Shown here: positions 2,587 to 51,754 of the stretch, piece after piece | Layout of the letters: every line of letters starts with the position of its first letter | Numbering within the stretch: the first letter of the stretch is position 1 | Source of the DNA: a phage | Assembly (NCBI GenBank): GCA_028130375.1 | Contig: GCA_028130375.1_3658.1 | Direction: 5' to 3' (one strand) | Length of the DNA stretch: 64,000 nucleotides | Made by a program: the position numbers and the translations under genes | Notes under the pieces: model-generated | Seen by the model: only the letters and a program-made list of their open reading frames with translations | Database searches by the model: none | What the model was told of the DNA's origin: nothing

Positions 2587-2613
2587 GCCCTGCCCGAAAG
2601 GGTGGGGCTTTTT
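2587..2613 (+). terminator. intrinsic terminator (GCCCTGCCC-GAAA-GGGTGGGGC, T5)
   Basis: 9-bp stem with two G-U pairs, GNRA tetraloop, then TTTTT; identical copy at 12754-12781. Confidence 0.6.
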
Positions 2614-3396
2614 GCATTAGGAGACAGCAAATTGAAATTTATCTACAAAGAACACTACCACAAAGGTGTTGTGTGGAGTCTATTTGACGGGTCTGGTGGT
2701 GCAGTCATTGACTGGGCAAAAGCTGGGTACCTGTGCCTGTGCTTTAATGCAGAAGGCGCTGATCACGGCAGTTATGCAGAGGTGATCACCGATCATCCCA
2801 ACATTCACTATGTGGACTATTGGATTGACCCGTGGTTCCCTCAGGAAACTTTTTGCATGTATCCGGCTCCAGATTTTATTCTTGCATTTCCTCCGTGCAC
2901 GCATTTAGCGGTATCAGGTGCTGCACATTTTAAGAAAAAGCTGGCTAAGGACCCCATGATCCAAATTAATGCTGTAAAGGATGCTCGGGTTGCGGAAGAG
3001 CTGGGAGAGATTTACGATTGCCCGTGGCATGTAGAGAATCCTGTGGGTGTTATGTCCACACTGTGGCGCAAACCTGATTACCGTTTTCACCCTTCGGATT
3101 ATGGCGGGTATTTACCGGAAGATGATGTAAACCCATGGTTTCCTGAATTTATAGCTCCACGTGATGCCTATCCAAAAATAACTTGCGGCTGGATAGGTAA
3201 TGGATTTATAATCCCAGCCACAAAACCTGTCCCGCAAATAGTTGACGCGGTTAGCGGGTATTCCATGCAACACGCCAAGCTGGGTGGAAAGAGTGCAAGA
3301 ACGAAGATGATTCGAAGCCTCACACCACGTGGCTGGGCAAAAGCCGTATTCCTAGCAAACGAGCCTGTAGTAAGGAGCAGAATTAATGGGAAGTAA
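2602..3396 (+). CDS. DNA (cytosine-5)-methyltransferase-like protein, compact and divergent
   Basis: Motif I-like SLFDGSGG, motif IV-like AFPPCTHLAVSGA (PC with catalytic Cys, T replacing Q), motif VI-like VENPVG; track start is GTG inside the terminator, a TTG at 2632 behind AGGAGA may be the true start. Confidence 0.5.
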   Translation: MGLFALGDSKLKFIYKEHYHKGVVWSLFDGSGGAVIDWAKAGYLCLCFNAEGADHGSYAEVITDHPNIHYVDYWIDPWFPQETFCMYPAPDFILAFPPCTHLAVSGAAHFKKKLAKDPMIQINAVKDARVAEELGEIYDCPWHVENPVGVMSTLWRKPDYRFHPSDYGGYLPEDDVNPWFPEFIAPRDAYPKITCGWIGNGFIIPATKPVPQIVDAVSGYSMQHAKLGGKSARTKMIRSLTPRGWAKAVFLANEPVVRSRINGK

Positions 3397-5464
3397 ATTT
3401 ATGGCATCTGCATACAACCGTTTCGGTGAGCCAAACCCGAAAGCAACTAAGTATAAAAGTGGGGGAAGTGTGAAACGAGACTATCGTGATGAAAAAGAAG
3501 TTGAAACTGTAGAGACTGTTTTAGAAAATACTAAAATTGTCCCTGTCCCACAACAAAATATCGGTCTGATGGCTGCACAATATTTTGGTGTGCGATCAGC
3601 ATTGTCACAAGAAGACGGTGTGACAGTCACTGCAACATATTTCCCATATTACGACCGCTACGGAAATCTGTCCGGTTTCAAAAAGCGTGACTGGACTATT
3701 CCTAAAGAACAAAGGGGCCACTTCTCCGTTGTTGGCATCGTAAAGGCCAACTCCCAGATGTTTGGTCAAAAGCTGTGTGCATCTTCCAACAACCGTAAGC
3801 AGATTAACGTTTGTGAGGGAGAAGGTGATGTTATTGCAGCATGGCAGGCTGCATATCAGATACAAGTAAAAGGGATTCTCACCAACGCTAAAGCCCCGGC
3901 AAAGGTGAAGCAGTGGGCTAAAGAGGTCCAGGACGGGATCGACGCAGTTATCAACGGTGGTGATCTGGCAGGAAAACCCTGCCTGCCTTTTGTTGGAATT
4001 AACTGTGGATGTGCAAACGCAGTAGATACTTTTGCAAACAATGAGAAGTTTATCCGTAGCTATGGAACAGTTGTACTGGCAATGGATAACGATGCAGCTA
4101 ACGAGGTAGAGAAGCAAAAACACGTCATTAAAGGTGTTGAGGCCACGCACAATATCGCAGCATTTTTGATGGCTGATAACGTTTACCACGTAGAATACCC
4201 TGGTGAAGTAAATGACCCTGACGGGGTAAAAGATATCCGTGACATGCTGAAGGCTAAAAAGCTGGAAGATATTGTCAACATGTTCCGGCATCCTGTTAAA
4301 TATGTGCCTGATGCTGTGTCGGATTTAGAAGACTTCTCTATCGAGTCTTTGCGGAAAAAGACTTCCAACGGGGTAGATATCAGCGCAGAGTTCCCAAAAC
4401 TGCAAAAAATGCTAAAAGGCTTGCACAAAGGGACACTCGTAATGCTTACAGGGCCATCAGGGGGCGGTAAAACAACTGTAGCTAAAAAACTGGAACATTG
4501 TATTGCAAGATACCTAATGGACCCGACATGCCCGAAGGCTGATGACTATGAAGAGGATGATCGTCTATGTATGATCCATCTTGAGGAGGACCCAGAGGAA
4601 GCAATTAACTCCTTGTATGCAAACCAGTTAGGGTTTGATGTTAAAGAGTTTGTTGAAGATCCTAGCCAGTTTTTAACTGATCAAGAACACGCAGAGATTC
4701 ACCAATCATGGGCAAAAGCTGGAAAAATCAAAGTGTTCAAACATTTCGGGTCTATTCCGGTGGATGAGTTGATTACCAAGCTTAAGCAAATGGTTTGCCT
4801 GTACCATTGCCGTTATATTGTGCTGGATCACCTGTCCATGGTAATTTCAGGGCTTAATGTTAAGGATGAGCGAAAAGAACTGGACATGGCTATGACTCAG
4901 CTGGCTGCGTTTTGTAAGCAGTTTAACGTGTTTATCTTGGTGATCGCTCACCTCAAACGTACAGAGATTGTGCCTCCTAAGGACAAGGATGGTAACCCGT
5001 TACCTTTCTGGTATCCTGTGCGAAAAGAGAATTTGCGAGGATCGGCGGGGCTTGAACAGTTGAGTTGGGTAGTCATAGGTGTCGAGGCCGAAGAAATGGT
5101 GGATCGTTCTCGTGGACGTGTCCGTCTGGTAGGTCTTAAAAACCGTCCAGCAAAAACTCTAGGTATTGCTGACACTTTGGTTATGGACCCGCACACAGGT
5201 AAGTTCCATGATGCCAGTAATTGGTACTGGGACAAAGAAATGCAAATGTTTACAGACGGAGAAGGTGGGGAGGTTGTTTGGAGACCTCAAGCTATGTTTG
5301 AGGATCAGGAGCATGCAGTTGTAGAAACACCTATGGGCAAGGTTGTGGCTGATAAGGTTGTAACTCCTACTGTTAAGCCTGTTGACACGCAGGAAGACCT
5401 CCAGTACGATGATCCATCCTCTGACCAGGTCCCTGGTTTTGAGGATGATGAAACGCCTTTTTAA
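3386..5464 (+). CDS. DNA primase/helicase (T7 gp4-like: TOPRIM primase + DnaB-family helicase)
   Basis: 692 aa; TOPRIM-like CEGEGDVIAAW and VLAMDNDAANE; Walker A LTGPSGGGKTT, Walker B IVLDHLS; acidic C-terminus ..FEDDETPF; RBS AAGGAG. Confidence 0.88.
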   Translation: MGSKFMASAYNRFGEPNPKATKYKSGGSVKRDYRDEKEVETVETVLENTKIVPVPQQNIGLMAAQYFGVRSALSQEDGVTVTATYFPYYDRYGNLSGFKKRDWTIPKEQRGHFSVVGIVKANSQMFGQKLCASSNNRKQINVCEGEGDVIAAWQAAYQIQVKGILTNAKAPAKVKQWAKEVQDGIDAVINGGDLAGKPCLPFVGINCGCANAVDTFANNEKFIRSYGTVVLAMDNDAANEVEKQKHVIKGVEATHNIAAFLMADNVYHVEYPGEVNDPDGVKDIRDMLKAKKLEDIVNMFRHPVKYVPDAVSDLEDFSIESLRKKTSNGVDISAEFPKLQKMLKGLHKGTLVMLTGPSGGGKTTVAKKLEHCIARYLMDPTCPKADDYEEDDRLCMIHLEEDPEEAINSLYANQLGFDVKEFVEDPSQFLTDQEHAEIHQSWAKAGKIKVFKHFGSIPVDELITKLKQMVCLYHCRYIVLDHLSMVISGLNVKDERKELDMAMTQLAAFCKQFNVFILVIAHLKRTEIVPPKDKDGNPLPFWYPVRKENLRGSAGLEQLSWVVIGVEAEEMVDRSRGRVRLVGLKNRPAKTLGIADTLVMDPHTGKFHDASNWYWDKEMQMFTDGEGGEVVWRPQAMFEDQEHAVVETPMGKVVADKVVTPTVKPVDTQEDLQYDDPSSDQVPGFEDDETPF

Positions 5465-5522: not shown

Positions 5523-8300
5523 ATGAGCATGTGGTCGTTCGATTTTGAGTCATCCGGTTTGCTGGAAGACCCAGATCTTTATTATCACTGCGGTCTGTTT
5601 AAAGAGCTGAATAAGAACCGTTTTATGCTGTTCCTTCCTCTAAATGACCGCACACACTACTCCGAGGAGGATATGGAGAAGGCTAAGAACTTTATTCTGG
5701 CAAAGAAAACTCTTTATAAAGATTTTGAAGTTCGCATAGCAGATTTTTCGGAGTTGGAAGGTTGGCTCACAGGCAATTCCGACTGGTCACCAACAGCTTT
5801 GAACTGCCATAACTGCTACAGTTATGACTTTATGCTGATGGAAAGATTATCCGGTATTCATTTTGATATGTTCCGTGATCCTAAATGCATGGGGACTATC
5901 AACGACCACCAGGTTAACCTGTTTGATACGTTGGCGATGAGCCGAATCTTATGGCCTGATCGCCCTTTACCAAAAGGTTGTCCTGACTCCGTATTCAACC
6001 CGGTTACTAAGAAAATGCAGCCTGTTGGTCCTCACGGCCTTATGGCATGGGGCTACGCCCTTGGTAACCAGAAAGTTCAAATTGATGACTGGCGCGATCT
6101 TCCGTTGTGGAAGTATGTGGATCGTGTATTCGAGGACGTTATCATCCAGGAGCTGCTCTGGAAAGAGCTGGTAGCGGAATCAAAAGGTGTATTCTACGGC
6201 AAATCTGACATGCAGAACTTTATGTACGATCCTGCCAAAGAGAAGCCGAAAGGGTTCAAGAAGATCACCTGGAAGAACGCATTGCGCCGGGGTATGCTGC
6301 AACACTTCCTGATGGAGCTGCAGGCCCGTCAGGGTGTGTATTTTGACATAGATGGAGCTATTGCTTTACGTGACCGTTGCGATGCGTGGATGAAAGAAAT
6401 CGCTGATCGTGTTGAACCGCAACTACCTTTAAAAGAGCTGTCAATGTCTCAGCGGCCCAAGTTCCCTGAAAAGCCGTTTAACCAAGATGGGACAATCTCC
6501 AATAATGGTTGGAAATGGTTAAAAGATAAGCTTGGCTATCCTGTAGATATGAGCGCTTTAGAGTTCAAAGCCCCGCCTAAGCGAGCATTTACCTCTACAG
6601 GAGATGTCAGTAAGATGGGGATAAAATGGTGTGAAGAGATGGGCTGCAAAGACCCCGATAAGATGGCTGATTTCTTGAGAGGCTATATTAAGGGCACCTC
6701 CACACCACAACCTTTACCTAAAGAGCTAATGGATCAGGCAATAAGTGATCTACAGCAGAAGCGAATGCCGGACTGCAAGATACCTATGAAAATCAGCAAC
6801 CAGGACGACATTAAGCGATACCTGATCAGTGCTGGTTGGCTTCCAACAATGTGGAGAACTAAGGATGTAACTAAAGACAGCAAGAAGAAAGCTCTACCTG
6901 ATGCAGATGTTGATGCACGAGTATATGCATATATGGACGAGCTTTTAGAGTCAGAGTATTGTGACCTGATTATCAACTTCTGGAACAAAACTGATGCTAA
7001 GTTCCAGACAACCGTGCACAAGTTCCGAAGCTTTCCTAACTCCGAAAGGATTAAAAAGGAAGTATTCGGGAAAATACGTAGAAAAGCTAGGGCACTTATT
7101 ACTTCTCCGCAACTGAAAGATACGTTTGGACACCTATGCCCTAATCTTGAAAAATTGAACGGAGAGATGGCTAAAGATATCGTCTTGTGGTTATCATTGC
7201 GAAACCGCAGATCGGTCCTTGATCCAATCAAGGAGGATAAGGTTGATACTGGTCTTCTTAATCACCCACGTTTGAAGATTGACCATAAGCTTCCTGCTAA
7301 AAGTTCTGGATTAACAAACACTTCCCGACAGAAACACAGTATTTGTGCAAACATGCCTAAACCATCTCCTAAAGTGGTTATGGGTAAAGAGATGCGTAGT
7401 CTGTGGGGTGTTCCTCCAGGATACTTTGAGATCGGTATTGACGGGTCCAACTTAGAGCAGCTTATCGGGGCTTGGGGTGCCTTTGAGTTCGACAACGGCC
7501 TGTATTACGATGTTGTAAGTAACGGGGACGCACACCAAAACAATGCTGAGGCATATACAAAAGTAGCAGGTAGAGAGGTGTCTCGTAACGACGGTAAACC
7601 TATCACGTATGGGGTTATGTATGGGGCACAAAAAGATAAAGTTGCAGATATGCTGGACATCTCTCCAGAGTTGGGACAAAGGGTAATCGATGCACTCTGG
7701 GATGCCAACCCTGGTCTTAAGGGGCGTAAAGAAGATCTGGAGAAATTCTGGGAAGCAACGGGTAAGAAGTTTATCTACTCTTTTGATGGTCATGCTATCT
7801 GGACCCGATCTAAACACTCTTTACTTAATGCATACCAACAAAATGGCGGTGCATCGTTGTGTGATTTAGTTGGGATACTCATGCACCACCAAATGGTGAA
7901 GCGTGGGTGGTACGATGAAGGTGTCCGTCGTATTATTTATTACCATGACGAATATCAGCTTCAAGTCCCTGACACACCGAAGTATAAGACTGTGTACACC
8001 TTCGACACAATTGAAGAACTGGAAGCATTTAAGGCAGAACAGGAGGCCAAACTTCATGTGTTCGACGGTCATAAGTACAAAAAGGCACGCAAAGATGAGG
8101 ACGGAAACGAAGTAGTTGACAGGGACGGAAACACGGTGTACGATCCTATCCTGAACGATGACGGAAAGCTTGAGCTTATCTGGAGCCCTGTGGGTGAAAT
8201 GGTGGTGCATTGCTTCTGGCAAGCTTCTAAAATGATGGGAGTCCCGTTCCAGATCACAGGTGAATACCTGTGTGGTCGTAATTGGGGTGATTGTCACTAA
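5523..8300 (+). CDS. DNA polymerase, family A, with N-terminal 3'-5' proofreading exonuclease
   Basis: 925 aa; Exo I MWSFDFESSG; motif B ..KPITYGVMYGAQ..; motif C ..YYHDEYQ..; RBS TAAGGAG. Confidence 0.9.
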   Translation: MSMWSFDFESSGLLEDPDLYYHCGLFKELNKNRFMLFLPLNDRTHYSEEDMEKAKNFILAKKTLYKDFEVRIADFSELEGWLTGNSDWSPTALNCHNCYSYDFMLMERLSGIHFDMFRDPKCMGTINDHQVNLFDTLAMSRILWPDRPLPKGCPDSVFNPVTKKMQPVGPHGLMAWGYALGNQKVQIDDWRDLPLWKYVDRVFEDVIIQELLWKELVAESKGVFYGKSDMQNFMYDPAKEKPKGFKKITWKNALRRGMLQHFLMELQARQGVYFDIDGAIALRDRCDAWMKEIADRVEPQLPLKELSMSQRPKFPEKPFNQDGTISNNGWKWLKDKLGYPVDMSALEFKAPPKRAFTSTGDVSKMGIKWCEEMGCKDPDKMADFLRGYIKGTSTPQPLPKELMDQAISDLQQKRMPDCKIPMKISNQDDIKRYLISAGWLPTMWRTKDVTKDSKKKALPDADVDARVYAYMDELLESEYCDLIINFWNKTDAKFQTTVHKFRSFPNSERIKKEVFGKIRRKARALITSPQLKDTFGHLCPNLEKLNGEMAKDIVLWLSLRNRRSVLDPIKEDKVDTGLLNHPRLKIDHKLPAKSSGLTNTSRQKHSICANMPKPSPKVVMGKEMRSLWGVPPGYFEIGIDGSNLEQLIGAWGAFEFDNGLYYDVVSNGDAHQNNAEAYTKVAGREVSRNDGKPITYGVMYGAQKDKVADMLDISPELGQRVIDALWDANPGLKGRKEDLEKFWEATGKKFIYSFDGHAIWTRSKHSLLNAYQQNGGASLCDLVGILMHHQMVKRGWYDEGVRRIIYYHDEYQLQVPDTPKYKTVYTFDTIEELEAFKAEQEAKLHVFDGHKYKKARKDEDGNEVVDRDGNTVYDPILNDDGKLELIWSPVGEMVVHCFWQASKMMGVPFQITGEYLCGRNWGDCH

Positions 8301-11146: not shown

Positions 11147-11512
11147 ATGGAACAAATGAACGATCAAACGTCGGTTGCAATGAACGAGCAAGAACAACCT
11201 CAAGAATTTTTCTTAGGGTTAAGTAAAGATCAAGTGTCTCTTTTGCTAGTGCTTTCTTCTTTCATGGGAAGACTTCAGGAGCTCACACAACAACCGGAGG
11301 CTGAACAATTATTTCAGGCTCTGCGCGAAGAAGAAAAATATCGTCGTTTGGACTATGCCTTAGGTTGGGTAGCTCAACAACGAGATATGCTGATGGCTCT
11401 CTCTGGGACCACAAGTTTTGCAATGGGCCTGTTGGCTCAAGTTCAGGACAAATTAATTCAGGCAGGGTTTGCACACACGGCAAACACTAACGAAGAACAA
11501 GGAGACAAATAA
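11147..11512 (+). CDS. hypothetical protein
   Basis: 121 aa ORF; RBS CGGAGA. Confidence 0.5.
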   Translation: MEQMNDQTSVAMNEQEQPQEFFLGLSKDQVSLLLVLSSFMGRLQELTQQPEAEQLFQALREEEKYRRLDYALGWVAQQRDMLMALSGTTSFAMGLLAQVQDKLIQAGFAHTANTNEEQGDK

Positions 11513-12738
11513 TGAGCGTTATTCAACAATTCGCTAACCCGATGAATCCGCGTGAAACTGTTTTACTGGCTCACGGCATGATTAAACGTGTCAGCATCAA
11601 GCCTATCAAAGGTGCTGATCCTACAACAGGTATTAAAACCACTGTGTGGCAAGGTAAGAAAATTGAATCCAGCCACACCATCTCTTTACTGATTTCTGAA
11701 CTGGATTCCTCTGATAACCTGCTTCAAGGTGGTGAAGAAGTTTGGATCAGTATGGGTGATAAGCTGCTTAAACCTGGTCATCAAGACTCTGTCTCTGTTA
11801 AAATTGATGACAAGTGGGAAACCGTAACGCCGGGATGGATCGTAAATATCCCTTTGAAGGCAAACGAGCATAACGGTAAGACCTATTACAAAGGCTCACT
11901 AGCTAAGATGGTCAAGCTGGGTGCAGGAGAGGCTCCAGCAGCGACCCAGCAGCAAAAACAGCAACAAGGTGCACAATCACAAGGCCAGAAGCAGAAACCT
12001 CAGCAGAATGCCAATCAGGACGTTTTACGCATCTATGGCGATGTGACTCAGATTGTTGGCAACGTGGTTACTGTTAATGACCACAAGATTGGCGAAGGTG
12101 CCATGGTTGTCACTGATGAGCAGCTTAAAGACCTGGTGGTAGGTGGTCGTGTTGCAGCCATTGTTGACAAAGACACCGGAAACATTATCAGTGGTTTCAA
12201 AGCCTATCCACCTAAGGCAGAGAACGGCACCCAAGGCTCTGGTGGCAAGCGTAAATCCTCTTACGACCCTATTGGTGTGGAGACGGGACATAGCATCAAT
12301 GCGTTGCAAATCATCCTAGATCGCGGGTTTAAGGTGGACGACCCACTAAGCGTGGCTAAAACACTGCACGTAGTCACCGTTGAGCTTAAGAAAGAGTATG
12401 CTCAAGCCACCAACCGAACTGAGGATGAAGTAGGTGCCAGTGTCGGTAATGCGGTGTTGAACGCTTGTCGCCGTATTGACAAGAAAACGAAAGTTGATGA
12501 TTTTGCAGCGGCAATTACTGCAGAAGCAAAAGATGTCTTGACTAATCTGGCTGAGCCGTTGTACGATTGGATCAAGAACGGTGCTGGGTCAACTGACCAT
12601 CAAGAACCTCAGGCTGCCAAACAGGAAGCAGCTCCACAGCAAAACACTGTAGACGCTCCTCCTGTAAATGATGAGGAAGATGACCCAATGGATCAGAATC
12701 CAGCACAGTACGCCTTTGATGATGACATCCCTTTTTAA
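11512..12738 (+). CDS. putative ssDNA-binding protein with E. coli SSB-like acidic C-terminal tip
   Basis: 408 aa; Gln-rich linker; C-terminus ..AFDDDIPF matches the host SSB tail DDDIPF; sits in the replication module; RBS AAGGAGA. Confidence 0.55.
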   Translation: MSVIQQFANPMNPRETVLLAHGMIKRVSIKPIKGADPTTGIKTTVWQGKKIESSHTISLLISELDSSDNLLQGGEEVWISMGDKLLKPGHQDSVSVKIDDKWETVTPGWIVNIPLKANEHNGKTYYKGSLAKMVKLGAGEAPAATQQQKQQQGAQSQGQKQKPQQNANQDVLRIYGDVTQIVGNVVTVNDHKIGEGAMVVTDEQLKDLVVGGRVAAIVDKDTGNIISGFKAYPPKAENGTQGSGGKRKSSYDPIGVETGHSINALQIILDRGFKVDDPLSVAKTLHVVTVELKKEYAQATNRTEDEVGASVGNAVLNACRRIDKKTKVDDFAAAITAEAKDVLTNLAEPLYDWIKNGAGSTDHQEPQAAKQEAAPQQNTVDAPPVNDEEDDPMDQNPAQYAFDDDIPF

Positions 12739-12753
12739 CAATTAGTTAACATA

Positions 12754-12781
12754 GCCCTGCCCGAAAGGGTGGGGCATTTTT
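12754..12781 (+). terminator. intrinsic terminator, second copy of the GNRA-loop hairpin
   Basis: GCCCTGCCC-GAAA-GGGTGGGGC then ATTTTTG, just after the SSB-like gene. Confidence 0.6.
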
Positions 12782-13579: not shown

Positions 13580-14005
13580 ATGACCTATGAAATGCCAAAA
13601 CTGATTCGTGACGATGCCCAAAACGCCCACACCTTTATCATGGGCAAACGCATGGATATTATTTGTCATAAAGATTTCTGGGAAGGGAGTTACTTCACAG
13701 AGTATTTTGGTAAACTGGACAATGGTCTGCTGATCCAGCTCTACACCGATGCGGAAAACAACATTCACTGGGAGTTCGAAACTGAAGATATCCATAAACT
13801 TTTCACCTTCCTCGGTATTAAGGTTGAGGCCAAGTTTGAAGAAGGTGAGTGCGACGATTGTGGATTCTATGAGGTAACAGATTTCTATCTCCCGAGTGGT
13901 GAGAACCTTTACTATGAAAGCCACTTCGGTAACTCCAATATGCCACAGTGCTGGACTGAGTTTTTTGAAATTGCGGAAGAGGAGCTGGCATACCGTGATT
14001 ATTGA
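13580..14005 (+). CDS. hypothetical protein
   Basis: 141 aa ORF; RBS CGGAGAA. Confidence 0.5.
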   Translation: MTYEMPKLIRDDAQNAHTFIMGKRMDIICHKDFWEGSYFTEYFGKLDNGLLIQLYTDAENNIHWEFETEDIHKLFTFLGIKVEAKFEEGECDDCGFYEVTDFYLPSGENLYYESHFGNSNMPQCWTEFFEIAEEELAYRDY

Positions 14006-14453
14006 TACTGTAGAGGGGGATTTAATCTCCCTTTTTAAGAGCGGTGCTGGTCACCTGATCCACGGTTGCAACTGCTTCCACACAATGGGCAAGGGGATAG
14101 CAAAACAGATCGCCCGTGAGTTCCCTCAAGCACTGGCAGCTGACAAAGAGACCAGACATGGTTGCCTAAGTAAACTGGGCGCGTTCTCAAGATGGGAGCA
14201 CTTATCTCCGATAGGTATTGTCTACGGAATAAATCTGTATACTCAGTTCTACCCAGGGCCTAATGCTGAATATTTCTCAATCCTGAAAGGCTTTGAGCGA
14301 GTCAATGAGGTATTCGAGGGATCGACTTTACCATTCTACATCCCTAAGATCGGGTGCGGCATAGGCGGTTTGAAGTGGGAACACGTAGAGGACGTTATTA
14401 ACCTTGCCACTTTCGACATAGATATTGTCGTGGTGGAGTACAAAAAGTGTTGA
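13995..14453 (+). CDS. macro-domain (ADP-ribose binding/processing) protein
   Basis: ..GDLISLFKSGAGHLIHGCNCFHTMGKGIAKQIAREFP.. and ..IPKIGCGIGGLKWE.. fit the macro-domain Gly-rich motifs; start uncertain (GTG 13995 used; alternatives GTG 13896, ATG 13914). Confidence 0.55.
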   Translation: MIIDTVEGDLISLFKSGAGHLIHGCNCFHTMGKGIAKQIAREFPQALAADKETRHGCLSKLGAFSRWEHLSPIGIVYGINLYTQFYPGPNAEYFSILKGFERVNEVFEGSTLPFYIPKIGCGIGGLKWEHVEDVINLATFDIDIVVVEYKKC

Positions 14454-29470: not shown

Positions 29471-30165
29471 AGTACAGACAGGGAAAATATGAGAATGTAG
29501 TTGGGGAAATTGATCAGACAGGTAGAGTATGGAATATGTTACAAGTATGTTAAATATGGAGGTTGAATATCTGTAGGATTTGTGTGTAAAATCAAAGACT
29601 TAAGGGGTGTTGTGGTATTTTCTATAAATAATTCAAGTTTAATAGGCAATATTTGTCTCTATCCGCTTTGTGTGGTAAACAGATTCAGATTAGATTGGTT
29701 TACAAGTGTATACATAATATACAAATTAAAGATACAAGAAACCCCCCTCCCCCCTTCGGCTACCATTCACCTTTTCCTCTGACTGGTACTTAAACACTTA
29801 TTCAGACTCTTCAGGTTATCACCCATATATCATATGGCAGTGACTGGTGTCCTCCGGCCCCTCTTTCGTCACCCGTCCGCTTCGCCATGCTAATGCCATA
29901 GCTAATGGTTCGGTTGTTCACCCTGTTCACTCAGGTGTATCTCTATACCCCTTCAAACCGAAGAGAACAGAAAACCCGAATTACTCGGTAAAAGAAAAGA
30001 GAAGAACTTAATTTTATCAGGATAGGCAAGAATGTCAAGGCATGACTGCTCACTAAACAAGCAAACAGTCATGTGTGGGAGGTAAGTGATTGTGGTGGTA
30101 GGAAATTTAGTTGAAAGATGTGTTATAGGTGCTTCCAGCACTTTAGCCGGGCAGCTAATTGTGTG

Positions 30166-30381
30166 TCAGTCCAGCGGTTCATCCTCTACTTCACTGAAAT
30201 CAATGTTCATGGTCTCTTCCCAACCATCGATCTCAGCACAAGAGTGGAGTTCTTTAGGGTTTACTCCCAAAGCCTCAGCAACAGAGTCTATATTTAACAC
30301 CTCTGGCAGGTATGATTCATCGAATTCAAGGTAAATCAGGCCACGAGTGTTGTCAGCTCCACCAAATATCTCTATCTTCAT
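30166..30381 (-). CDS. hypothetical protein
   Basis: 71 aa acidic ORF. Confidence 0.45.
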   Translation of the reverse strand: MKIEIFGGADNTRGLIYLEFDESYLPEVLNIDSVAEALGVNPKELHSCAEIDGWEETMNIDFSEVEDEPLD

Positions 30382-30502
30382 AAAATCTCCTCTGGGAATG
30401 AAAGTGTGAACAGGGTTTTATACGTTCTAATGCACAGGAATTATACACGTTTGCCTCTTCAGGCCATGCTTTAGCATGAGGAACCTGTGTGGGCTCGGTG
30501 CT

Positions 30503-30715
30503 TCATAGTCTACCACCTCTGAACTCTTCGTGCTCAGGCATAATAGAGAACCAGATATCTACGATGTCCTCCCACGTCAGGTCATCAGCCTCAGGATCTG
30601 TCTGGGACGAAGATGAAGAGTCCTCAGAATCTAAGTTTTCCTCTTTAACTGGCTCATCCAAGGGACATATGGTCACTCCTTCGGATGTCTCTTCAGATGC
30701 ATGTGTGTTGATCAT
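30503..30715 (-). CDS. hypothetical acidic protein
   Basis: 70 aa ORF. Confidence 0.45.
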   Translation of the reverse strand: MINTHASEETSEGVTICPLDEPVKEENLDSEDSSSSSQTDPEADDLTWEDIVDIWFSIMPEHEEFRGGRL

Positions 30716-30813
30716 GTTCCACCCGTGAGTATTCCGGCAACAGCCGCTATGGAAGTAATGATCATCAGGATCACCACTAAAACTTCAGACAATGTTCTCA
30801 TTGTGTATTCCAT
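30712..30813 (-). CDS. small hydrophobic peptide (33 aa)
   Basis: Not in the track; SD GGAG; stop overlaps next start (ATGA); MEYTMRTLSEVLVVILMIITSIAAVAGILTGGT. Confidence 0.3.
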   Translation of the reverse strand: MEYTMRTLSEVLVVILMIITSIAAVAGILTGGT

Positions 30814-30833
30814 ATTCTCCAAACTGTGTGTGG

Positions 30834-30862
30834 ATACTATCACGGGAGCGGTAATGTGTCAA
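30834..30862 (-). promoter_or_regulatory. sigma70-like promoter on minus strand (TTGACA-17-TAGTAT)
   Basis: TGTCAA at 30857-30862, ATACTA at 30834-30839 on the plus strand. Confidence 0.45.
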
Positions 30863-31020
30863 CAGAAACGCCGCGAGGGTTTGGTTAAAATCCGAGCGTA
30901 TGGTGATTTGGGTCAAAACGGACGTGCGTTCTCGCTACGCTCGAAAGAGAGATTTGTTTGTAGGAAGCTCTTAAACGCTCTGTAATGAGATTATCTGTCC
31001 AAGGTATGCAATCGTGCACC

Positions 31021-31050
31021 AGATAAAGAAAAGGACGCCACAGAGCGTCC
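31021..31050 (-). terminator. intrinsic terminator (minus strand)
   Basis: GGACGC..GCGTCC hairpin followed on the minus strand by TTTTCTTTATCT. Confidence 0.5.
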
Positions 31051-31075
31051 TAGGTGTCTTAAATTTGATATTTTG

Positions 31076-31387
31076 CTATACCCATGAGGGCTTATCAAGG
31101 TTGGAGTAGCTGAAAGGTGTCAAAAGGTGACTGTCAAAATCTCTCAAACTATCTAAATCTTTTTCCTCGTCCTGACACCATCTGTGCCTACATTTATTGT
31201 TGTAGTGCATAGAATGCATAGCGTTCTGCAATTTAACAGGCACAAGTGATTCAGGAGTAGATAGTATTGTTGGGTATGCCAGAACCACCTCAAACAGTGG
31301 AAACACATCGAAACTAAAGTCTACCTCTGCAGAGGTTGATGGCATGTAAGAGTATTTAGCCGCCTTTGTAGACATAATCCACCTCAC
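31076..31387 (-). CDS. hypothetical protein
   Basis: 103 aa ORF. Confidence 0.5.
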   Translation of the reverse strand: MRWIMSTKAAKYSYMPSTSAEVDFSFDVFPLFEVVLAYPTILSTPESLVPVKLQNAMHSMHYNNKCRHRWCQDEEKDLDSLRDFDSHLLTPFSYSNLDKPSWV

Positions 31388-31710
31388 ACAGGTTTGATAA
31401 TACCTTTACCGAATAACTCTTCGTATCTAATCTTATCCGGATCCCACTCCTGGATAATTTCGAAGACAATATCCAACCCTGGGATAATCACTTCTCCAGT
31501 GTCGAGCTTAGCAAGAACAAAACCGGAAGGTTGAATGGTTTCCCAGTTGCGCCGATTGGAATAGAAGACCTCGAAAATATCGCCGACCTTTATCTGTTGA
31601 TCAAGATGTTCAAGATTCTCTTTCATATAGACGCAGCGGATTTTTCGTGCAGGCCATAGACCACCTGCATCACGTTCATTTAGCTCTTTTACAGTGATTG
31701 GTATACCCAT
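31384..31710 (-). CDS. hypothetical protein
   Basis: 108 aa ORF; ATGA coupling. Confidence 0.5.
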   Translation of the reverse strand: MGIPITVKELNERDAGGLWPARKIRCVYMKENLEHLDQQIKVGDIFEVFYSNRRNWETIQPSGFVLAKLDTGEVIIPGLDIVFEIIQEWDPDKIRYEELFGKGIIKPV

Positions 31711-31730
31711 CTCAAATCTCCTTCATAGAT

Positions 31731-31756
31731 AGTAAAAAGAGGGGCCCAAGCCCCTC
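31731..31756 (-). terminator. intrinsic terminator (GAGGGGC-loop-GCCCCTC, T-tract on minus strand)
   Basis: Hairpin 31739-31756 preceded on the plus strand by AGTAAAAA. Confidence 0.5.
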
Positions 31757-31765
31757 TCTTTGTCA

Positions 31766-32071
31766 TTATTCTACAGAGCGTTTGAACAGAATGTCTGCCT
31801 CAGACATGTGCTCAACCTCTTCTTCGATTTTAGCGCGACGTTTTTCAGCCTCATAGCGAATATCGAACTCGGTAGCCACCAGAGATTTGATGAATTTAGG
31901 AGAATACAGGTGATCCTGCTTCTCAACGAGAATGATATCCTTAATGGCATCTTTCAGATCTTTAATCTGAAGTTGGAGTTCTACCAGTTCTTCGATTGTT
32001 TTGCGAAGGCGATCACGCTCTGCAGTGTCAGAAGGAAGAGAGGTGAACAGTTCAACTTTAGATTTAGCCAT
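31766..32071 (-). CDS. hypothetical coiled-coil protein
   Basis: 101 aa, charged helical composition. Confidence 0.5.
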   Translation of the reverse strand: MAKSKVELFTSLPSDTAERDRLRKTIEELVELQLQIKDLKDAIKDIILVEKQDHLYSPKFIKSLVATEFDIRYEAEKRRAKIEEEVEHMSEADILFKRSVE

Positions 32072-48311: not shown

Positions 48312-49400
48312 TTAAAACTCCCAAATTTCTTCTTCAGCGTCGTTAACAGTTGTGTTGACGCGGTAGTCAGTGTTCGACATTTCTTGGTTCGCCGTCTGTT
48401 GTAATGAAGGTTTCATCCACACCTGCATAAACGGTAGCGGGTCCTTTGTTGGCGGCACAAAGTCTTTGTCGATGTCGTAGTAATCATAAATCGGTGAGCA
48501 GTTATAGTCAACCCACTCTTTAAGCAACGGTGAGTTAAGACCTATAATCGCTCTTCCTTCGCTGAAAATATAGTCACTCCAACCGTACTCTTTGGTTCGT
48601 ACTTCATCAAGAATCTCTTTTAACTCCCCCTTTATCTCAAGGAAGCTTTTCTCCCATGCGGGATCATTAAGCAAGATATCAATGATGGCAAAATCACCTT
48701 TCGAATGTAGCATTTCGTCAAGCATGATTTTTTGAACAAGCTGCGCCACCTGAACAAAGATACCCTGTTCAGCTACTGCGAAAGTGCATGCAAAACTTGC
48801 AATAAACTCAATACTTTCCAGAGCTAAAAGCGCAAAAAGCGCTCTAAGAATGCATTTCCGCACAATATCTTCTTCAACACTAGAAGGATCCAGGCGGTAT
48901 TTTGCACCAATAACCTCAAGCTCTTGCATGTATTTGACAATAACGCCGGATCTGCTCAGAACGTTTTGGTTTTCCTGAATCTCTTCTATAATCTCACGGG
49001 CATTGGGGAGGCATTGTCTAACAATCTCTGAGTAAGTTAGTGCGTGAAGAACTTCAATCTCTGACTGTTTCATCAATAGAGTGAAAAGCTCACTATTAGT
49101 GATGAATGGTGAAAAGAGGCAGATGATCGATCTTGCCGCAACGCTATCAGCCTCCCATTGCCACATCAAGGTCTGCACCATCACGTCATAAGTTGACTTT
49201 GAGCATGTTACAAAATCTGAAATAGATTGCGACAAATCCACTTCATCCTCTGCCCAATCTTGCTCTTTTTGTTTTTTGTATAGTTCAAACAGTTGTGGAT
49301 ATTTTTTGTTGATAGAGTCGTACATACCCATTTGCTGTCCCAGAAACAGCGGATAGTCACCAGTTTTATGAGCGGTGTTCTCAGCATTAAATACAGCCAT
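48312..49400 (-). CDS. nrdB: ribonucleotide reductase small subunit (class Ia)
   Basis: Ferritin-like ORF next to nrdA; ATG 49400 (MAVFNAEN..) behind GAGGTAGA chosen over the upstream start at 49460 that overlaps nrdA. Confidence 0.8.
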   Translation of the reverse strand: MAVFNAENTAHKTGDYPLFLGQQMGMYDSINKKYPQLFELYKKQKEQDWAEDEVDLSQSISDFVTCSKSTYDVMVQTLMWQWEADSVAARSIICLFSPFITNSELFTLLMKQSEIEVLHALTYSEIVRQCLPNAREIIEEIQENQNVLSRSGVIVKYMQELEVIGAKYRLDPSSVEEDIVRKCILRALFALLALESIEFIASFACTFAVAEQGIFVQVAQLVQKIMLDEMLHSKGDFAIIDILLNDPAWEKSFLEIKGELKEILDEVRTKEYGWSDYIFSEGRAIIGLNSPLLKEWVDYNCSPIYDYYDIDKDFVPPTKDPLPFMQVWMKPSLQQTANQEMSNTDYRVNTTVNDAEEEIWEF

Positions 49401-49417
49401 TATTCTACCTCTAAAAT

Positions 49418-49431
49418 GGGGCCGAAGCCCC
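49418..49431 (-). terminator. terminator-like hairpin between nrdA and nrdB (GGGGC-UUCG-GCCCC)
   Basis: GC stem with UUCG-type loop and weak T-tract on the minus strand; may act as an attenuator. Confidence 0.35.
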
Positions 49432-49438
49432 TTTAAAA

Positions 49439-51754
49439 TTATAGTGCACAGCTTTCGCAATACGGATCTTCAACTGAACTATCTGCAATCAAAGGATAGT
49501 TCTTTCTGGTTTCATCTTCAGCCTGTTTCTTGGCATGAAGTTCCTCTGCCAAGGAGTCACCAGCACCAACCCTAGAGTTTAAATAATACCATGTCTTCAT
49601 CCCGAATTTAGTGGCACGGATAAGGTACCCTAACTGCTCCTTCATTGAAATTTTACCATCTTTCAACTTGGTGTAGTCTATGTATAAATCCGCGCTGATT
49701 GCCTGACCTGTGAATTTTTGAATCACGGCATACATATCGATCATGTCGTTAGTATCAACGTCCCAAGCCGAGGTGTAATACTCTTTCAACTCATCATAGT
49801 CAGGAACGATAAACAGCACCTGCCCTTGTGGCGACTTTTTAAAGATAATGTGCTCACGGACAGGATAAACCCCGTTAGTGGTGTTTGTTGCCAGCGAAGA
49901 GCTTTCATTAGGCATATATGCTTCAAGAACGCTATTACGTAGCCCACCATTCTCAATGATTTCTTTACGTAACCCTTCCCAATCCTGTTTAAGAGAAGGA
50001 TCTTTCACCACGCTATCGACCTCTTTGTTATAGGTGTCGATTGGTAACCAACCTTCTGGATATTTTGTTTTATGCATCCACTCGCAGACACCACGCTCTT
50101 TTGCCAACCGTAAACTTGCCTTATGCAAGCTGTAGCTGTGAAGTTCTGCAAGATCGTGAACGAGCTGTTTACTTTCAGGAGACCCGTAAGTAACCTTGTG
50201 GCTGGCAATAAAATGTGCAACATTGGTAAGGCCAACCCCGATGGATCTGCGTTTTTTAACTGTGCTTTCCATATTTTCATACGGATATGTCATGATTTCC
50301 ATAACATTGTCAATCATAAGCACCGTATAGTATGCAACATCCTCATACTCCTCTGGAGTAACCCTCCCAGCTACAAGAGATGACAGGAAGCACAATGCAA
50401 CCTCTCCATCATCAGCATCGTACTTGAAGATATTACGCATATCTGAATAGCCTTTTGTCGGGAGGGCTATTTCTGCACACAGGTTGCTTGAATAGATCAC
50501 ATCTTTAAAAGGTGTATGTCTATTCATCTCATCTGTCCAGTATACGTACAGCCTTCCCACCTCAGTGCGCTGCGTGATCAGTTCAACAGCAAGATCTCTA
50601 GCTCGGATCCATGTTTTAGGAATACTGTCATCTTTAGCAATACGATCAACCTCTGCATCAAACTCCTCCATAGACATGGTGAAGATACCCTCATGCAGTT
50701 GAGGCGCGTGCTTATAAGAAACAAGCATCCAATCTAAATTCTTAGCCACACGGTTGATAAACGACCTATTAATACCGATGGAGTAGTCCATGGTGTTGAT
50801 TCTTTTTGAAGCAACAGTCATAGGGTTTCTCAAACGGATTAGCTCATCAATCTGCGGGTCCAGTGCAAGGAATGATACTGTTGCAGAACCACCACGTGAT
50901 TGTTGTCTGTTCTCCTTAACCCCAGCATCAATACCTCGATAATATGGAATCTTACCCATATGTTTAATAGTGTTACCACGAACACCATCGCCTGCAGATC
51001 TTGAGGATAAGTAGTAGCCGATACCTGCTTGGTTAACCGTCATTGTGTACGCAACTTCACGTGCCACACCAATAGATTTTGCTGTATCGTCAGCTTTTAT
51101 TACACAACAAGATGCATACCCTGTCTTACCTGTGCGCAGCCCGTTTAAGTACGGTGTTGGGGCATTGATCTTTAAGTCGGACAGATAAGTGTACAATTTT
51201 ACAACATCGTTGATACGACGTTCTTTCGGCATATTCTTCATGACAGCCATTGCTATCCCCATAAACATCATCTGGGGAGATTCAAACAAGGTGTCTTTAA
51301 GAGTATCCTTGATCCCGTATTTGTCGCGAAACTGTTTAAGGACTGCATAGCCATAACCGAGATCTTTACTGTGGTCAATAACAGCGTCTAAAGTGTTTAG
51401 CTCGGTAAAGCTATAACCCATATCCTCCCAATAACCTTTCTCAACCATGTCATTGTAAAATGATGGTAAGGAAGGGATCTTTGTAAACCCTCCAAAAGCC
51501 TCTTTATAGATCTGACCAATAAGAACACGACCAGCCATACGGGAATGTGCTTCGTCTTTACGGCTAACACAAGAGTCTATAATAGCTTGGTTAACTTCTT
51601 TGGTTGTACATCCATCATACAACCGCTTGTAGGCATCCAGTGCAATATGTGACCAATTGCCGTTACCATCGTCACCGAAAATAGCTGCCTTATTTAAACG
51701 TTCTGGATCGAATGCCACTTCACATCCGTTGCTTTTAATTACCTTGGTGATCAA
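49439..51754 (-). CDS. nrdA: ribonucleotide reductase large subunit (class Ia)
   Basis: 771 aa; N-terminal ATP-cone-like ..KVIKSNGCEVAFDPERL..; C-terminal ..CESCAL redox tail. Confidence 0.9.
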   Translation of the reverse strand: MITKVIKSNGCEVAFDPERLNKAAIFGDDGNGNWSHIALDAYKRLYDGCTTKEVNQAIIDSCVSRKDEAHSRMAGRVLIGQIYKEAFGGFTKIPSLPSFYNDMVEKGYWEDMGYSFTELNTLDAVIDHSKDLGYGYAVLKQFRDKYGIKDTLKDTLFESPQMMFMGIAMAVMKNMPKERRINDVVKLYTYLSDLKINAPTPYLNGLRTGKTGYASCCVIKADDTAKSIGVAREVAYTMTVNQAGIGYYLSSRSAGDGVRGNTIKHMGKIPYYRGIDAGVKENRQQSRGGSATVSFLALDPQIDELIRLRNPMTVASKRINTMDYSIGINRSFINRVAKNLDWMLVSYKHAPQLHEGIFTMSMEEFDAEVDRIAKDDSIPKTWIRARDLAVELITQRTEVGRLYVYWTDEMNRHTPFKDVIYSSNLCAEIALPTKGYSDMRNIFKYDADDGEVALCFLSSLVAGRVTPEEYEDVAYYTVLMIDNVMEIMTYPYENMESTVKKRRSIGVGLTNVAHFIASHKVTYGSPESKQLVHDLAELHSYSLHKASLRLAKERGVCEWMHKTKYPEGWLPIDTYNKEVDSVVKDPSLKQDWEGLRKEIIENGGLRNSVLEAYMPNESSSLATNTTNGVYPVREHIIFKKSPQGQVLFIVPDYDELKEYYTSAWDVDTNDMIDMYAVIQKFTGQAISADLYIDYTKLKDGKISMKEQLGYLIRATKFGMKTWYYLNSRVGAGDSLAEELHAKKQAEDETRKNYPLIADSSVEDPYCESCAL

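Follow-up and report, generated by a model that had tools for sequence, protein, structure and literature searches.

A putative single-stranded DNA-binding protein with a host-type C-terminal tip in the replication operon of an rV5-like phage

A recent preprint describes Bas52_0087 of phage Bas52 (RudolfGeigy) as the phage factor required to trigger the reverse-transcriptase defence DRT10 (bioRxiv 10.64898/2026.04.29.721553, 30 April 2026). [quoted passage not shown] Escape mutants of Bas52 carried missense mutations only, D252V or Y351C. In the model put forward there, Bas52_0087 competes with or displaces SbcB, overexpression of which weakens DRT10. Expressed alone, Bas52_0087 had no effect on E. 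coli viability and was not sufficient for DRT10 activation, and the DRT10 requirement was shown genetically for Bas52 only (bioRxiv 10.64898/2026.04.29.721553). In this work we analyzed the orthologous SSB-like protein encoded in 64,000 nucleotides of phage DNA (contig GCA_028130375.1_3658.1 of assembly GCA_028130375.1; this whole stretch is referred to as the window). The window is a portion of an rV5-like Vequintavirus genome, and 117 phage records show at least 90% DNA identity to it.

The SSB-like protein of the window and Bas52_0087 are identical at 404 of 408 positions (99%) and share the FDDDIPF tip; D252 and Y351 are both present and lie within a helical domain. Bas52_0087 is the same protein in a sister phage, with no real difference from the one studied here. 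The SSB-like reading offers little novelty, since it was put forward earlier for a protein of 99% identity: it is published as a prediction backed by genetics, and the finding is real, but not new. Literature searches on its ortholog rV5 gp209 gave nothing relevant. The accessible text of the preprint does not discuss the tail of the primase-helicase, the breadth of the family, the conserved helical domain as a separate unit or the extension that follows the tip in some relatives; to that account we add a family-wide view, the matching helicase tail and the post-tip extension.

DDDIPF is given as the conserved C-terminal hexapeptide of E. coli SSB (PMC5872125). In phage T7, the tails of gp2.5 (...EEADEDGDF) and gp4 (...DWSNDTDF) bind the T7 polymerase (PMC12339929). 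In phage HK620, the last six residues of an SSB that ends in NDYPPF and is described as a distant SSB homolog recruit the phage partner Sak4 onto SSB-coated single-stranded DNA (ssDNA) (PMC5928155); no Sak4 homolog was seen in the window phage. We consider it likely that the protein of the window is a non-canonical replicative SSB of a T7-type replisome, made up of an OB-like core, a second OB domain in an accessory role, a helical domain for self-association and a partner-docking tail.

The host-type tip and the predicted domains

The open reading frame (11512..12738) ends in ...DQNPAQYAFDDDIPF, followed by a TAA stop, and the protein thus closes exactly with the E. coli SSB hexapeptide DDDIPF, as the initial annotation had claimed. 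Across 28 homologs, with identities as low as 31%, P407 and F408 never vary. Of the close homologs whose C-terminus is complete, 43 of 54 stop exactly at [IVL]PF. In a set of 147 representatives with no more than 50% identity to one another, 106 end in xPF, mostly as D[FW]DDD[IVL]PF. The tip is nearly universal in the family, and because of this conservation and the invariance of P407 and F408 the match to DDDIPF is not a chance one. Several relatives even end in PPMDFDDDIPF, which we take to be the last 11 residues of E. coli SSB. The tail as a whole is of the SSB type, with a disordered G/Q/P-rich linker and then acidic D-D-D-[IL]-P-F at the free C-terminus. The sole other acidic tail with a terminal Phe in the window and in a complete relative (...DAEEEIWEF, 48312..49460, minus strand), which we also considered as an SSB-type tip, belongs to the small subunit of class I ribonucleotide reductase. 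It is the ordinary R1-binding tail of this enzyme and unrelated.

The protein corresponds to rV5 gp209, PVP-SE1 gp039 and phi92 gp156. It matches phrog_4477 ("unknown function") end to end (residues 1-408, E 1e-173), and this family was also matched by all 64 of 64 divergent relatives. An exhaustive profile search returned 245 clusters (50% identity), and for 168 of these E was 1e-10 or lower. Members of phrog_4477 come in two architectures, one of about 380-420 amino acids and one of about 260-300 amino acids that lacks the middle domain (e.g., phi92 gp156). "Hypothetical protein" is the GenBank label in the rV5-type records inspected, and a few phi92/phAPEC8-type relatives were labelled SSB by their submitters. 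Pfam found no domain in the SSB-like protein and no family that was matched consistently among the 64 divergent relatives; PF00436, the OB domain of canonical SSBs, was matched neither by the protein nor by any of these relatives. BLASTP gave no similarity to T7 gp2.5, and PHROGs otherwise yielded "unknown function" families and a few weak SSB-labelled matches that were probably driven by the tail. At the level of sequence, the family could hence not be linked to canonical SSB, to T7 gp2.5 or to any family in Pfam.

An AlphaFold2 model of the full-length protein, built on a 28-sequence alignment, contains three folded domains with a predicted local distance difference test score (pLDDT) of 80-96, while residues 363-408 stay below 50. 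The N-terminal domain (residues 1-139), modelled alone, reached a pLDDT of 91.3 and a predicted template modelling (TM) score of 0.83 and forms an all-beta barrel of 11 strands. Its best 50 Foldseek neighbours in the PDB are nearly all ssDNA-binding OB folds, among them RPA70/32/14, DUF2815, SSBs of Deinococcus radiodurans and other bacteria, the phage p2 SSB, PriB, the MCM N-terminal OB domain, Cdc13/CST and ExoVII. The fold prediction proposed in the initial annotation thus gave a confident barrel, but the fold matches remained weak (best E 0.036, TM-score at most 0.45). The impression by eye that the N-terminus does not obviously resemble an OB fold was not borne out, as far as these scores allow. 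A library of viral structures returned members of the family that are uncharacterised and, with weaker scores, proteins labelled DUF2815 or "phage ssDNA-binding domain". The DUF2815 structures 4klk and 4jg2 matched by Foldseek with E 0.1-0.56 and TM-scores of 0.23-0.29, which does not amount to a gp2.5/DUF2815-type similarity.

With the full-length model, Foldseek additionally matched IF1, the OB domain of proteasomal Rpt, RPA14 and YgiW over 65-77 columns (probability 0.98-0.99, TM-score to target about 0.6). These matches belong to the middle domain, because they were missing from the search with the N-terminal domain. Conservation was mapped across 64 divergent members of about 20-37% identity. 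In the N-terminal domain, the aromatic positions H55, W102 and Y126 and the basic positions K87 and K97 stand out, and in the four-helix domain G255, G259, H260, N263, G308 and G312. Over the whole family, conservation is highest at the glycines of two GxxxG-like motifs in this helical domain and at P407 and F408. The SSB-like reading is supported by the OB-type neighbours of the N-terminal domain with their weak scores, by the second OB domain and by the independent agreement of the preprint.

The layout resembles that of E. coli SSB and the phage SSBs of the PF00436 type, in which a basic DNA-binding domain is likewise followed by a disordered G/Q/P-rich linker and an acidic DDDIPF C-terminus. 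Unlike these, the protein lacks PF00436 and carries two OB-like domains and a four-helix domain per chain, on 408 instead of 178 amino acids. More than one OB fold per polypeptide is also found in D. radiodurans SSB and in RPA, and both 1se8 and subunits of RPA rank high in the list of fold matches. However, these matches are statistically weak, domain order and linkers differ, as does the helical domain, and there is no sign of common descent. In our proposed mechanism, the basic N-terminal OB-like barrel would bind ssDNA, with the small second OB domain as an accessory. The conserved four-helix domain would mediate self-association, as suggested by its conservation and by the mapping of the escape mutations in the preprint, and the long disordered tail would present the acidic docking peptide D-F-D-D-D-I-P-F-COOH. 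The sequence features, domain models, conservation in the family, genomic context and genetic role as DRT10 trigger are shown by our analysis or in the literature, and we infer ssDNA binding, oligomerisation and the identity of the tail partners.

Replisome partners and competing readings

The SSB-like gene closes a replication operon, after genes for a T7 gp4-type primase-helicase and a family A DNA polymerase (PolA), and does so in phages of the rV5, PVP-SE1 and phi92 types. In the primase-helicase, Pfam places DnaB_C and AAA_25 over residues 331-589, phrog_239 ("DNA primase/helicase") covers residues 18-678, and BLASTP aligns residues 88-611 with T7 gp4A (E 3e-21 over 528 amino acids); from this coverage, a helicase domain is fused to an N-terminal primase region. 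PolA matches T7 gp5 with E 4e-19. The C-terminus of the primase-helicase reads ...VPGFEDDETPF, so that the acidic ...FEDDETPF end seen in the initial annotation is confirmed, and the analogy to the T7 tails drawn there has gained by the true gp4 and gp5 homologs and by the conservation of this end. Among 120 primase-helicase homologs, 112 end in PF, 110 of those with acidic residues before it, and some read ...PDFDDDTPF, a single residue off the SSB tip. Because the homologs mostly keep the acidic ...PF end and some even carry DFDDDTPF, the tails of the SSB-like protein and the primase-helicase appear, judged by their sequences, to be one type of signal that has been conserved in both.

An acidic tail with a terminal Phe, a gp4-type helicase with a similar tail and a gp5-type polymerase are thus all present, as in the gp2.5-style set of T7. 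The differences from T7 are that gp2.5 has no sequence similarity to the SSB-like protein and only the weak DUF2815 fold match, that the tip is the bacterial DDDIPF and not DGDF, and that the basic patch of gp5 appears poorly conserved in the low-identity alignment with PolA. In the complete, hand-curated relative Bas55 (135.6 kb), no SSB is annotated, whereas primase/helicase, PolA, a second helicase, two exonucleases, ligase and EndoVII are listed; when every stop-to-stop open reading frame of Bas55 was searched with E. coli SSB by phmmer, nothing matched. Judged on this relative, the SSB-like protein is the only SSB candidate in the genome. The near-identical tip of the primase-helicase follows the pattern [DE]xD[TSE]PF, and by analogy to T7 gp2.5 and gp4 both tails would most likely dock onto a common receptor in the phage replisome, for which PolA is a candidate. 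Since its tip is identical to that of the host SSB, the SSB-like protein can probably also engage host SSB clients, e.g., ExoI/SbcB, and hijacking of host partners by the tail is plausible. The evidence that bears on such hijacking is indirect and comes from the published genetics, which tie this protein to the SSB-tip client ExoI/SbcB by way of DRT10.

Some side observations concern the replication genes of related phages. Many primase-helicase homologs (P0062-P0064, P0103-P0151) have about 975-1025 amino acids and are about 300 amino acids longer than that of the window. The PVP-SE1 primase/helicase gene (L008:3110-6053) is annotated as joined, with an HNH endonuclease gene inside, and the Bas52 DNA polymerase gene (L011) is joined as well. 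Where such genes are split, the insertions contain endonucleases and are either introns or inteins, and the replication genes of this phage group look like preferred sites of mobile endonuclease elements.

Several observations weigh against a replicative SSB of a T7-type replisome. No similarity outside the tail emerged from Pfam, PDB-sequence or hhalign searches: with phmmer and hmmsearch against the PDB, SSB aligned over the tail only (E 0.4-1.1), and in hhalign of the family profile with E. coli SSB only the last 13 residues aligned. Foldseek against the PDB produced no match at E <= 0.001, with the low TM-scores of the N-terminal domain given above. The second OB domain is acidic, and to our knowledge the four-helix domain does not occur in any characterised SSB. 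The basic patch of T7 gp5 (K587, K589, R590, R591, K594, R599) is basic at 2 of 6 positions in the aligned PolA; in this 25%-identity BLAST alignment only R590 and R591 pair with Lys, and K587 falls inside a 6-residue deletion. The primase-helicase of phi92 ends in ...ENISAGSY without an acidic tail, though gp156 of the same phage keeps the tip. Lastly, the tip is buried by an extension in about a fifth of the close homologs.

A replicative SSB with a partner-docking tail can be set against a reading in which both tails, strictly as in T7, bind the phage polymerase or helicase only and the identity with the host tip is convergence. The gp4 and gp5 homologies, the acidic Phe-terminal tails on both proteins and the binding of the T7 tails to gp5 (PMC12339929) speak for such an exclusively phage-internal function. 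T7, however, manages with ...DGDF and ...DTDF, whereas here the exact bacterial D-D-D-[IVL]-P-F is kept, often with PPMDF before it, and the tail module is common to canonical SSBs. The tailless helicase of phi92 and the seemingly poor conservation of the gp5 patch fit this reading badly too, and we think it unlikely. A recombination mediator or single-strand annealing protein in place of a replication SSB would agree with the lack of any annotated recombinase or annealase in Bas55, with the GenBank record of T7 gp2.5, which lists both ssDNA-binding and ssDNA-annealing, and with the recruitment of annealases by phage SSB tails (PMC5928155). Yet Pfam and PHROGs gave no similarity to the Erf, RecT, Rad52 or Sak4 families. 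An annealing role would also be compatible with an SSB role and not an alternative to it, and as a replacement for it we consider annealing very improbable.

The protein might also act as an SSB-tip decoy or adaptor that sequesters or redirects host SSB clients (ExoI, RecJ, RecQ, PriA, chi). Instead of serving replication, it would then protect phage ssDNA intermediates or cripple host DNA metabolism, with its OB-like domains used for protein or auxiliary DNA binding. Up to 11 residues identical to the host SSB C-terminus in relatives are in line with this, as are the SbcB competition or displacement model of the preprint and the weakening of DRT10 by SbcB overexpression. On the other hand, Bas52_0087 alone did not affect E. 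coli viability according to the same preprint, although a protein that competes effectively for the essential interactions of the SSB tip would be expected to do so. The gene is part of the replication operon and encodes the only SSB candidate of the genome, the N-terminal domain is basic with conserved aromatics, and the same kind of tail on the primase-helicase points to a role inside the replisome. A pure decoy is less likely because the protein alone is non-toxic and no other SSB candidate was found, and we give this reading only a small chance. The replicative, non-canonical SSB thus remains our preferred interpretation.

A sequence extension behind the tip

Behind the Phe of the tip, 11 of the 54 close homologs have a further 15-16 residues (APIGLQYGRNFIHCI and variants); PVP-SE1 gp039 and phi92 gp156 belong to these 11. 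The consensus is a conserved hydrophobic stretch of 14-16 residues, AP[IV]GL[QPM][YF]...[IL]xx[ILM], which directly follows DDDIPF and removes the free C-terminal Phe. The protein of the window has no such extension (position 12736). The same extension occurs on two primase-helicase clusters and on primase/helicases of Klebsiella phages, and also on true SSBs of the PF00436 type, which come from a P22-like Salmonella phage and from a Vibrio phage. In a search with a tail profile, it was present in 55 of the 120 matches listed, and most of these are fragments of SSBs whose names refer to genomes of E. coli, Salmonella, Proteus, Providencia and Klebsiella; SSBs with extension from such Enterobacterales genomes are presumably borne by prophages or mobile elements. 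About 230 phage records contain the tip plus extension. Its presence flips between near-identical proteins, and within one phage its presence on one of the two proteins is not tied to its presence on the other. The searchable literature contained no description of the motif, which thus appears undescribed.

In some near-identical phages, a gene of about 580-620 nucleotides, annotated as "endonuclease VII" and homing-endonuclease-like, directly follows the stop codon of the SSB-like gene; it is absent from the window. On one rV5-type contig, the extension coincides with a homing-endonuclease-like gene whose start overlaps the coding sequence of the extension. We nevertheless rejected the extension as an artefact of a downstream endonuclease-like gene, since PVP-SE1 and phi92 have the extension but lack the gene, and slur16 shows the reverse. 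An extension that caps the tip and so evades DRT10 was not supported either: DRT10 restricts phage groups with and without extension, and among those restricted are the Stephanstirmvirinae, whose homologs carry it.

The pockets that bind SSB tips need the free carboxylate of the terminal Phe, and an extension behind the tip would therefore switch docking. We may thus speculate, although we see little chance that this proves right, that tip and extension form a C-terminal module which moves among three protein classes without relationship to each other and can be switched by gain or loss of the extension, and which would toggle between docking of host clients and another partner or fate.

Genomic surroundings and biological meaning

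The positions of all features are compiled in Table 1. The AAGGAG ribosome-binding site of the SSB-like gene stands 5 nucleotides ahead of the TAATG overlap with the preceding gene, and the hairpin behind the SSB-like gene comprises 9 GC-rich base pairs followed by a T-run. The pair of phrog_7310 gene and SSB-like gene is also present in PVP-SE1. The small gene upstream of the SSB-like gene in phi92 was rejected as a homolog of the rV5-type one, as it belongs to a different PHROG (phrog_16560).

Table 1. Coordinates of the SSB-like gene, its predicted domains, neighbouring elements and related features in other records
Feature	Position	Strand	Remarks
T7 gp4-type primase-helicase	3386..5464	+	692 amino acids; acidic tail GFEDDETPF (nucleotides 5435-5461)
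Family A DNA polymerase (PolA), T7 gp5 homolog	5523..8300	+	putative receptor for both tails
Upstream gene, phrog_7310 (unknown function)	11147..11512	+	121 amino acids; translationally coupled via TAATG
Ribosome-binding site AAGGAG and TAATG stop/start overlap	11499..11514	+	couples upstream gene and SSB-like gene
SSB-like protein gene (rV5 gp209/Bas52_0087 ortholog; phrog_4477)	11512..12738	+	408 amino acids plus stop; ATG start
Basic OB-like beta-barrel, residues 1-139	11512..11928	+	pI 9.1; presumed ssDNA-binding core
Disordered Q/G/P-rich linker, residues 140-169	11929..12018	+	pLDDT < 50
Small acidic OB-fold domain, residues 170-237	12019..12222	+	b1-b2-b3-a-b4-b5; optional in family
Four-helix domain, residues 250-356	12259..12579	+	pLDDT > 90; most conserved part
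Disordered acidic tail, residues 357-408	12580..12735	+	net charge -12; ends FDDDIPF (nucleotides 12715-12735)
Terminator-like hairpin (intrinsic type) and T-run	12754..12781	+	directly 3' of SSB-like gene
Extension carriers, phrog_4477 family	PVP-SE1 gp039 L006:9001-10230; phi92 gp156 L005:8521-9468		
Extension carriers, canonical SSBs	L009:2078-2584; L010:2027-2584		
Extension carriers, primase-helicases	P0070/P0079		
Endonuclease-like insertions	slur16 L001:3248-3826; metagenome contig L007:2444-3067		insertion point corresponds to window ~12739

Beyond the operon, two DNA methyltransferase genes (46-1371 and 2602-3396, both on the plus strand) lie on either side of the point where the replication module starts. 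Pfam assigns one to the N6/N4 type; the other has no Pfam hit, and its ortholog in Bas55 is annotated as a Dcm-like C5 type. Two genes downstream of the SSB-like gene, an open reading frame of 185 amino acids (13896-14453, plus strand) matches the Macro domain of Pfam over a short part (profile positions 1-32 only; E 3e-6, 27.6 bits), which could mean an ADP-ribose-related function. The GC skew turns from positive to negative at about 30000-32000, where the genes switch from the plus to the minus strand, at a border of divergent or convergent transcription blocks.

It is becoming apparent that bacterial defence systems are commonly triggered by phage SSBs, with Retron-Eco8, Hna, AbpAB, DARNA and DRT10 as examples in the literature, and an SSB identity of the protein would explain why DRT10 senses these phages. 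The host-identical tip provides a natural system to ask whether phage partners, host partners or both are served, and the helicase tail and the post-tip extension are concrete leads beyond the preprint. The family is absent from Pfam, and the great majority of the phage records inspected call its members "hypothetical protein". If they were recognised as the SSB of the Vequintavirinae, the Stephanstirmvirinae and related phages, a missing part of the replication module would be supplied for a large set of coliphages that are candidates for therapy.

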